Made by a program: the position numbers and the translations under genes. Shown in pieces: positions 22,587 through 23,205 of a stretch of 64,000 nt of DNA. Position 1 is the first letter of the stretch. The number at the start of each line of letters is the position of its first letter. The notes beneath the pieces are model-generated. The model saw only the letters and a program-made list of their open reading frames with translations, ran no database searches and was not told the DNA's origin. This DNA is from Nonlabens sp. (GTDB taxonomy: Bacteria; Bacteroidota; Bacteroidia; Flavobacteriales; Flavobacteriaceae): positions 2,539-66,538 of the forward strand of contig NZ_JBPOGG010000012.1 of the NCBI RefSeq assembly GCF_051251825.1, in the 5' to 3' direction.

Positions 22587-22676
22587 TTAGTCTGTTAGTC
22601 TGTTAGTTTGTTAGTTGCGGATTGCATCCGTTTAGTCTGTTAGTTGCGGATTACATCCTCTTAGTAGGTTAGTTTT
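22587..22676 (+). repeat. Left arm: TTAGTnnn octamer array with two TTAGTTGCGGATTRCATCC units
   Basis: TAGT at 22588, 22596, 22604, 22612, 22633, 22641, 22662, 22670. Confidence 0.9.
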
Positions 22677-22743
22677 TTGGTAGCGTAGCGTTGAACTTTG
22701 ATTATTCTTTTTTATTTTAGAAACGTATAATAAAATATTGCCC

Positions 22744-23112
22744 ATGTTTGACAGTCAATTTCATTTCAAGTTTGAAGATTTAAAAGTGTACCAGCGTGCC
22801 TTTCATTTTGGAGAGCATGTTAATTTACTTTCTCAAAAGTTTCCAAAGCACGAGATGTATAAATTGTCTTCGCAATATTGTAGAGCTGCAGATTCTATGT
22901 CTGCAAATATTTCTGAAGGCTATAGCAGTACCGATGCAAATTTTAATAGATATCTAAAAATGGCATTTGACAGCAGTCAGGAGTGTGTCACTTGGAATTC
23001 TAAAGCTTATTTTAGAAAATACATCTCAAAAGAAGTGTTTGAAGAAAACCGAAAAGAACTCAGCGAGATAGGAAGAATGATTTCAGGATTAAGAAAAAGT
23101 TTGAAACTGTAA
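22744..23112 (+). CDS. Four helix bundle protein (23S rRNA IVS / Avd-like family)
   Basis: FEDLKVYQRA, FPKHEMYKLSSQYCRAADSMSANISEG, FNRYLKMAFDSSQE; ATG 22744 preferred over TTG 22738. Confidence 0.88.
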   Translation: MFDSQFHFKFEDLKVYQRAFHFGEHVNLLSQKFPKHEMYKLSSQYCRAADSMSANISEGYSSTDANFNRYLKMAFDSSQECVTWNSKAYFRKYISKEVFEENRKELSEIGRMISGLRKSLKL

Positions 23113-23147
23113 TCAGCTATTTCTATTAACTAAATAATTACTATTCG

Positions 23148-23205
23148 ACTCATAAACTAAGCGGATGCAATCCGCAACTAAGAGACTAATAAACTAACCA
23201 ACTAA
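23148..23205 (-). repeat. Right arm: reverse-complement octamer array with perfect 20-bp inverted core
   Basis: 23162-23181 CGGATGCAATCCGCAACTAA is the exact reverse complement of 22611-22630; ACTA at 23156, 23177, 23185, 23193, 23201. Confidence 0.9.

Follow-up and report, generated by a model that had tools for sequence, protein, structure and literature searches.

A four-helix-bundle gene between inverted word arrays in Nonlabens resembles 23S rRNA intervening sequences but lies outside rRNA

Intervening sequences (IVSs) that interrupt 23S rRNA and carry an open reading frame (ORF) are known in Leptospira and Coxiella burnetii, and such ORF-bearing sequences were reportedly treated by Ralph and McClelland in 1993. 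The S23p IVS of C. burnetii has a 28-bp terminal stem with GACAGAT heptamers, is cleaved by RNase III, encodes the pentameric protein S23p and has been discussed as a possible mobile element (PMC4990558). Here we analyze a related element in a 64,000-nt stretch of Nonlabens sp. DNA (hereafter the window), in which a gene of the PF05635 four-helix-bundle (4HB) family lies between two inverted arms at positions 22587-23205. It shares with 23S rRNA IVSs the PF05635 pentameric four-helix bundle, a length of ~430-620 nt, an ORF between terminal inverted repeats that hold tandem short repeats, a location in transcribed DNA, and a suspected mobility for which no enzyme has been identified. We assign the window element to a widespread variant of the IVS design that is so far undescribed; full-text literature searches turned up no account of copy-specific inverted word arrays around 4HB genes beyond rRNA. 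The explanation that we favor, and consider probable, is an IVS-type 4HB cassette, in which the PF05635 gene has on each side an array of a short cognate word, T[TG]AGT at period 8, the two arrays being inverted relative to each other.

Unlike the rRNA copies, the window element does not lie in helix 25 or 45 of 23S rRNA but in a protein-gene spacer. As an earlier interpretation made from the letters alone (the sequence-only reading) had stated, its single ORF, on the + strand, is antisense to both neighbors: a gene with a type IX secretion system (T9SS) tail (19804-22482, - strand) and a LytTR response regulator (23223-24011, - strand), which is followed by its histidine kinase. This position between the T9SS-tail gene and the LytTR regulator led us to reject an assignment as an rRNA IVS by location; Rfam gave no rRNA match in 22300-23400, and the sole match there, a sub-threshold miRNA, pointed to no known RNA family. 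The element further differs from the rRNA IVSs in that its arms are word arrays with unpaired spacers, in that its ORF is under strong purifying selection while the Coxiella ORF is decaying, and in that one Nonlabens genome holds eleven copies with eleven words.

The two arms, 503 nt apart at 22587-22644 and 23148-23205, are an inverted repeat over 58 nt with 83% identity (48/58). A repeat search recovered both this repeat and the perfect 20-bp core that the sequence-only reading had described: the 20-mer TTAGTTGCGGATTGCATCCG occurs without mismatch at 22611-22630 (+) and 23162-23181 (-), and with two mismatches at 22640-22659 (+), the second, degenerate left-arm core of the same reading, where 0.00 occurrences are expected from shuffles. 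The left arm also contains a 29-nt direct repeat (22603-22631 and 22632-22660, 86% identity). The triple TTAGTnnn octamer TTAGTNNNTTAGTNNNTTAGT has five matches with at most one mismatch in the 64 kb, every one of them within the arms, against 0.03 expected. When the left arm is compared with the reverse-complemented right arm, mismatches affect 1 of 30 word positions, 0 of 15 hairpin-core positions and 9 of 13 positions in the 3-nt spacers (69%; Fisher p = 6e-7), in agreement with the earlier claim that nearly all of them fall outside TTAGT, in octamer positions 6-8. The parts of the locus are as follows.

22551-22579, no strand assigned: flank motif CTTTCTGAAnnGCAGTTTnnnTTGCTGAA, upstream of the T9SS-cargo gene and outside the cassette; fixed left boundary of the insertion site.
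22587-22688, + strand: left (T9SS-proximal) arm, with three TTAGTnnn octamers, the perfect core TTAGTTGCGGATTGCATCCG (22611-22630), one octamer, the degenerate core (22640-22659), then TTAGTAGG, TTAGTTTT and TTGGT.
22689-22743, + strand: inner left spacer, kept in alignments of strains of the same orientation; putative promoter and start region of the ORF.
22744-23112, + strand: 4HB gene, 122 aa, PF05635/TIGR02436, intact.
23113-23147, + strand: inner right spacer, variable among strains, with ~66 extra nt in strain L181.
23148-23205, + strand: right (LytTR-proximal) arm, with ACTAA words, the core CGGATGCAATCCGCAACTAA (23162-23181) and the hairpin GCGGATGCAATCCGC (23161-23175).
23206-23222, no strand assigned: GCTGAGCGAAGCCGAAG, which fills the gap from the right arm to the LytTR stop codon (23223-23225) and matches the dispersed repeat CACTGAGCGCAGTCGAAGTG in degenerate form; absent from L181.

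The window element is one of many. The source genome (G000; 3.3 Mb, 36% G+C) contains 11 PF05635 genes, all 11 bracketed by inverted arms of short tandem units, and the unit is different in every copy (for example GACTGC/GACTGA, TCGAAA, CCACTAAT, TTTAAAC and GGTTGTTG); element lengths range from 429 to 633 bp. We scored arms by comparing the upstream flank with the reverse-complemented downstream flank and used 2,714 ORFs of the whole genome as the null, which has a median of 18, a 95th percentile of 24 and a 99th percentile of 32. The 4HB genes reached 66 (the window element, tied for the top of the null), 51, 48, 44, 37, 36, 36, 33 and 31, so that nine of the 11 paralogues stand within the top ~1.2% of ORFs. 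A wider set of 141 distinct cassettes was drawn from the genomes of 39 Nonlabens species, 37 of them with 4HB genes, and from 39 closely related loci elsewhere in the Flavobacteriaceae. Arm scores exceed the null's 95th percentile in 100 of these cassettes and are at least 30, just below the 99th percentile of 32, in 64; the window cassette has the highest score of all 141. Followed inward from either end in the 5' to 3' direction, 52 of 63 cassettes have a G+T-rich arm, as do 18 of 23 locus clusters.

Several comparisons indicate that the arm words belong with the protein. Between cassettes at different loci, sharing of arm 6-mers rises with protein identity, from 2% below 50% identity to 16% at 60-70%, 24% at 70-80% and 39% above 80%; cassettes at the same locus with less than 40% protein identity share 1.3%. 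The inner spacer is co-inherited with the gene and stays at ~7% background over the same range of identities, and because arm sharing rises while the spacer remains at background, the word would be either under constraint or continually homogenized. The arms appear to follow the gene and not the place. The window's protein clade is found at at least four loci, with T[GT]AG[TC] words in every case. All 17 Nonlabens genomes with a member of this clade (at least 63% identity) have period-8 arrays of T[GT]AGT, versus 9 of the 22 without one.

The nearest relatives at other loci (69-78% aa identity) are cassettes within the phenylacetate (paa) operon, located at the junction of DUF1697/PaaH with PaaI(4HBT) or at that of enoyl-CoA hydratase with a hexapeptide transferase, in Nonlabens, Aequorivita, Winogradskyella, Dokdonia, Bizionia and other genera; some Dokdonia copies occupy a third junction, upstream of a membrane-protein gene. 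The arms of the window's relatives at these junctions have a period of 7-8 and the core T[GT]AG[TC] (e.g., GAGTCTTT, GAGCTATG and GGTGAGT), and some Nonlabens arms combine TGAGT and TTAGT words. The four T9SS-locus copies group as a single clade (93/86) in a maximum-likelihood tree, where their sister is a PaaH-PaaI copy (100/98) and the whole is nested among Nonlabens PaaI-junction copies. Since the T9SS-locus clade is nested within paa cassettes of the same word, there was one locus switch, in which gene and arms traveled as a unit, and the comparisons show the cassette to be one heritable unit. At filled DUF1697-PaaI sites, the left arm gives the upstream gene its TGA stop, within the first TGAGT word, and the right arm gives paaI a new ATG and six codons; the corresponding junction of the source genome is empty, with a 3-nt gap. 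Gene decay inside retained arms appears to be common in the window's clade at paa junctions, where cassettes with one to four internal stops were seen at G025:C1:810140, G062:C1:343631, G004:C2:268615, G006:C13:89213, G005:C1:211074 and G016:C1:200120. A 15-kb paa-operon contig of the source genome (G000:C14:3200-14918) carries four 4HB cassettes at successive junctions, each with its own word.

The insertion site itself can be followed in relatives, as the junction between the T9SS-cargo gene and LytTR is syntenic in five other Nonlabens species. Four of them (G031, G026, G018 and G001) have an empty site with a spacer of 65-113 nt; G031 is the closest, with flanks 80-85% identical, and G031, G018 and G001 have a terminator-like hairpin in the spacer. 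The right-arm hairpin of the window, which is followed by a T-rich tail on the - strand, looks like a terminator of the LytTR operon and may stand in for the hairpin of these three empty sites. In the fifth species, G006, the slot (L015, G006:C12:80898-84590, locus ~1100-1500) is taken by a reverse-strand gene for a 98-aa GIY-YIG nuclease framed by GGTCACTGAGCGCAGTCGAAGTG-type repeats, and the dispersed repeat of which window positions 23206-23222 are a degenerate copy terminates this cassette at the matching position. Two kinds of armed cassette have thus settled in this slot. The motif CTTTCTGAAnnGCAGTTTnnnTTGCTGAA is conserved in the genus, beside empty, 4HB-filled and GIY-YIG-filled sites in all relatives; on the - strand, that of the T9SS gene, it reads TTCAG-N14-TTCAG, with two TTCAG(C/A)AA direct repeats ~19-21 nt apart, and looks like a LytTR-type operator for the adjoining two-component system. 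A metagenome scan with this flank motif found again only the G018-type empty site.

The sequence-only reading had proposed a minimal mobile or excisable unit, and had named a gene fixed at its locus and paralogues without arms as the picture that would speak against it. Empty alleles in four species and arms at 11 of 11 paralogues, each with its own word, give the opposite picture. Gene and arms were gained together here, as the empty alleles indicate; the part of the proposal that implied autonomous mobility did not gain ground, as no mobility enzyme was identified. No direct duplication of a target site flanks the arms, the spacers of filled and empty species being too different to align for clean boundaries to be recovered. 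A DNA transposon or miniature inverted-repeat transposable element was rejected on the lack of a target duplication, of ends common to the 11 copies and of a transposase ORF.

The antisense orientation of the ORF is probably derived, a point missed by the sequence-only reading. Of the 141 cassettes, 133 are co-directional with both neighbors, and the window holds the only clear antisense case. A sister copy (L190, 83% aa identity), found on a 1,010-nt Logan contig, has in common with the window the T9SS-proximal arm, the junction of arm and flank, and the motif CTTTCTGAAnnGCAGTTTnnnTTGCTGAA before the orthologous T9SS gene, yet its ORF points toward the T9SS gene, the canonical direction and the opposite of that in the window. 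L190 aligns to the reverse complement of window positions 22100-22700 (score 175) but its ORF aligns to the window's + strand. The outer arms are unturned: toward LytTR, both copies show TTAGTTGG words. Most simply, the interior was inverted between the arms by recombination, in the ancestor of the window, L181 and L192. The flip is old, because dS between the window and L190 is 1.77 and hence saturated.

The gene has been maintained in this orientation. Its 122-aa product matches PF05635 (E = 1.3e-27, 96.5 bits, cut-off 33.8) and TIGR02436 (90.8 bits, cut-off 24), and the family motif R-x3-S-x3-N-x2-E is found as CRAADSMSANISEG in the translated ORF. This motif is conserved across PF05635/TIGR02436, members of which have also been reported within cas operons (PMC3936711). 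The closest solved relatives, 2GSC and 2RLD, have five chains each, and the family is described as pentameric (Lin 2006, as cited in PMC4990558). The gene is under strong purifying selection, with dN/dS of 0.009 against L181 (19 synonymous and one non-synonymous differences), 0.07 against L190 and 0.10 against L182. As this selection continued after the flip, the gene would have to be expressed from signals of its own in 22689-22743; a scan for sigma-70-type promoters found no + strand site for the ORF, with a model that does not cover Bacteroidetes promoters. The protein was earlier called IVS/Avd-like, and the family assignment holds. Avd, the accessory protein of diversity-generating retroelements (DGRs), has a homologous fold within the same superfamily, is likewise a pentamer and binds nucleic acid, but the window protein reaches only 23.8 bits with the model DivGenRetAVD (NF033474), far below its cut-off of 80, and there is no pair of template and variable repeats. 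The reverse transcriptase (RT) family PF00078 is absent from the whole source genome, and 26 of the 39 Nonlabens genomes have no RT; a DGR, retro-mobility or an Avd-like role was ruled out on the lack of an RT in the genome.

While the gene is conserved, the arms turn over rapidly. In the close strains L191, L192, L193 (GCA_000755265) and L181, the cassette occupies the same site and has the same orientation; the L191 region is identical to the window, the ORFs of L192 and L193 differ from it at 8 nucleotides, and L181 has 99% aa identity. Distal left arms differ between strains whose ORFs differ at just 8-20 nucleotide positions: L192 and L193 have eight octamers and the degenerate core only, L181 has two octamers and one core, and the window and L191 have an additional perfect core, identical to that of the right arm. 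This core was gained recently, plausibly by copying between arms (gene conversion) or else by a fresh insertion of a repetitive extragenic palindrome (REP), two routes that give the same outcome here. Folding predicts local hairpins in the arms, the left one at 22617-22631, and the arm hairpin belongs to a small REP-like family, a point missed by the sequence-only reading. GCGGAT-N3-ATCCGC hairpins number 5 in the genome versus 0.12 expected. A RAYT-like Y1-transposase gene at C11:444.8 kb (Y1_Tnp, cut-off 23, here 25.4 bits) lies between two of the five; the region around this gene (G000:C11:440500-445600) shows GGCGGAT-N3-ATCCGCC and GACGCATGC-type hairpins on its flanks. The hairpin is missing from the T9SS-proximal arm of L190, the one arm of that copy that is fully visible, and from the paa-junction cassettes and the other 10 paralogues, all of which have word arms; for this reason, we regard the hairpins as probable secondary passengers.

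Two further classes of repeat occur in the same genome. Small GIY-YIG nuclease genes framed by their own repeats are known as 'Ssn'-type. Like the 4HB cassettes, these and DUF559 cassettes consist of a small gene in inverted repeats and use the same kind of intergenic slots, with one in G006 at exactly this site and several in G000. They account for the remaining high arm scorers, and their hairpin-type dispersed repeats are common to copies, unlike the copy-specific word arrays; moreover, they encode a nuclease, whereas the 4HB protein has no known catalytic activity. Small genes for GIY-YIG nucleases and DUF559 endonuclease-like proteins, with strong inverted flanks of this type, lie at C40:2027-2362, C5:6568-6882, C8:9167-9433, C1:143418-143801 and C40:63395-63766, and one GIY-YIG gene lies between two near-identical tRNA-like 3' segments. 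The second class is that of short tandem arrays, of which the genome has ~350 with a period of 5-10. Cyanobacterial short tandemly repeated repetitive (STRR) sequences are likewise enigmatic intergenic heptamer or octamer arrays. In the relevant parts of the published descriptions, the GGGNATC repeats of Xanthomonas and Nostoc (PMC4692102) and the multicopy sequences of Geobacter (PMC2700814) are gene-less intergenic arrays tied to no gene family. The arrays studied here resemble all of these as abundant 6-9-nt tandem arrays in transcribed intergenic DNA between co-directional genes, and differ in that inverted pairs bracket 4HB genes specifically, with words that track the protein clade. Strong inverted partners within 1 kb are found almost only at 4HB genes; the addition is one gene-less palindromic array (C47:93435-93503), where AGTTAAG-type units face AACTCAT-type units with almost no loop, possibly what a lost cassette left behind or an array hairpin that stands alone. 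Of 328 solo arrays, 43 match the word of a resident cassette, where the null gives 23.3 +/- 3.4. Long arrays of octamers or heptamers (ACTCACAA, ACTCACCA, CCACTAAT and GGTTTAA) mark the edges of many contigs (the starts of C5, C47, C48 and C12 and the ends of C8, C14 and C49). Assembly fragmentation is caused by these arrays, and further cassettes may be hidden there.

How the arms act is the point at which explanations diverge. It is unlikely, in our judgment, that the element follows a pure IVS mechanism, in which the arms pair in the transcript, RNase III cuts the stem and the ORF loop is excised, with periodicity as a by-product of slippage. The gene family and layout are those of the Coxiella IVS with its stem, heptamers and RNase III cleavage (PMC4990558). 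The co-directionality of nearly all cassettes (133/141) means that host transcripts read through them, and the minimum-free-energy (MFE) fold pairs the arms, which hold the perfect 20-bp core. Set beside the near-perfect stem of an IVS, the arms give a mixed picture, with 83% identity over 58 nt and that core, but spacers mismatched at 9/13 positions. The mismatches have no leaning toward G-U wobble on either strand: counted over the 64 well-armed cassettes, 62 would permit a wobble pair in sense RNA, 70 in antisense RNA and 156 in neither. Sister cassettes retain the GAGT core in both arrays but differ in spacers between left and right (CTTT versus TTGT or TGGT), and word cores are conserved across genera while adjoining non-coding sequence is not. 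The left-arm hairpin of L181 has undergone a compensatory C-G to T-A change, after which the local hairpin still forms while pairing with the right arm is weaker. The sequence-only reading had offered two roles for the arms, and iteron-like word sites fit better, given the conserved word, the lack of wobble bias and the tracking of the clade; a long stem fits less well with spacers that are 69% mismatched. An RNA role of the arms is weakened by these observations.

The remaining explanations place the origin of the arms or the movement of the cassette elsewhere. Arrays and array hairpins could be an independent repeat class, with the 4HB gene inserting into the loop of a hairpin of its preferred word, so that the arms are the target. 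The abundance of arrays (~350, of which 25 are of T[GT]AGT type and mostly solo), the gene-less palindromic array on C47 and the location of rRNA IVSs at helix tips would suit such a landing pad, which we nonetheless hold to be improbable: the empty LytTR-T9SS sites of four species have no such array and only terminator-like hairpins, the empty DUF1697-PaaI junction of G000 is just 3 nt, and arm words track the protein clade at at least four loci. A REP/RAYT (REPIN-like) element, whose inverted GCGGAT-N3-ATCCGC hairpins would be the functional ends mobilized by a RAYT-like transposase, with octamers incidental, seems very improbable to us. It draws on inverted short GC-rich hairpins of one family, on their excess in the genome and the two that flank the RAYT-like Y1 gene, and on a copy number that varies by strain, with an extra perfect copy gained in the window and L191 relative to sister strains; but here the hairpins are nested in the arms, occur in ~5 copies per genome, lie ~530 nt apart in the cassette, unlike those of REPINs, and are missing from L190's fully visible arm, the paa-junction cassettes and the other 10 paralogues. 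Because of these absences, REP hairpins as the functional ends of all copies were rejected. Equally hard to credit is a programmed invertible switch, in which recombination at the arms would flip the ORF on and off with appreciable frequency. One locus does show both orientations between matching outer arms, as in an inverton, but in lineages 17% apart in protein and with saturated dS (1.77); no invertase adjoins the cassette, four close strains are all of one orientation, and the ORF is under purifying selection in what would be its 'off' orientation.

We return to the IVS-type 4HB cassette with its cognate word. The comparisons show a single entry of the cassette into the spacer that separates the LytTR operon from the T9SS-cargo promoter, with the DUF1697/PaaH-PaaI junction lineage in Nonlabens as its source. 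In the lineage of the source genome its interior was then probably turned around between the arms, which left the ORF antisense to its neighbors and for which recombination between the inverted arms could account, while the arms kept changing by gain and loss of units and picked up the REP-like hairpin. The arms would act as arrays of a sequence word and not as a fully paired stem, and the likeliest reader of the word would be the cassette's own pentameric 4HB protein, on DNA or on the transcript. Protein binding, with or without RNase III-type cutting of an arm duplex, may keep the cassette tolerated in transcribed gaps.

Several observations weigh against this explanation. Protein-word recognition is not separable, on the present comparisons, from plain co-inheritance of gene and arms, and the association between the clade and its arrays has a hypergeometric p of ~6e-5 that was calculated by hand, is uncorrected and ignores kinship. 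Most solo arrays (285/328) match no resident cassette's word. The sequence-only reading saw no transposase, RT or target duplication, and this stands; neither the cassette nor its surroundings contain a transposase ORF, recombinase, nuclease or RT. Among the near-identical strains L181, L191, L192 and L193 there is no presence/absence variation, since all are filled, so cassette movement is old and rare. The flip is seen in one 1,010-nt Logan contig that begins inside an arm, in which we observed no shared inverted 31-mer that would cause misassembly. When both strands are folded, as earlier suggested, the arms do pair in the MFE fold of the sense RNA (-184.8 kcal/mol, z = -8.1); the antisense strand gives -143.6 kcal/mol (z = -3.7). 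The perfect 20-bp core could serve as a substrate of RNase III, which leaves room for an RNA role.

A wider proposal, which we put forward only tentatively and as possible at best, is that each PF05635 pentamer is a sequence-specific reader of its own 4-5-nt word, which recurs with fixed periodicity in the two inverted arrays. Gene and inverted arrays would then form a self-recognizing cassette system that colonizes transcribed gaps (operon junctions, terminator regions and rRNA helix tips), is flipped or lost by arm recombination, and seeds the intergenic heptamer and octamer arrays of many bacteria; the classic 23S rRNA IVSs would be copies that landed in rRNA.

Since ~1990 it has been an open question what the "23S rRNA IVS protein" family does and how rRNA intervening sequences arose, and the meaning of the abundant intergenic 6-9-nt tandem arrays is likewise a long-standing question. 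The locus described here offers a dated history, with one locus switch together with the arms, one flip and ongoing arm turnover, and adds strong purifying selection on the protein and evidence for the word over the duplex. In practical terms, the arrays break assemblies, and the arms can give neighboring genes their stop and start codons. The vague idea of a selfish element is thereby turned into testable claims in a culturable marine Flavobacterium: cognate binding between protein and word, arm-mediated inversion, and dependence on or independence of RNase III.

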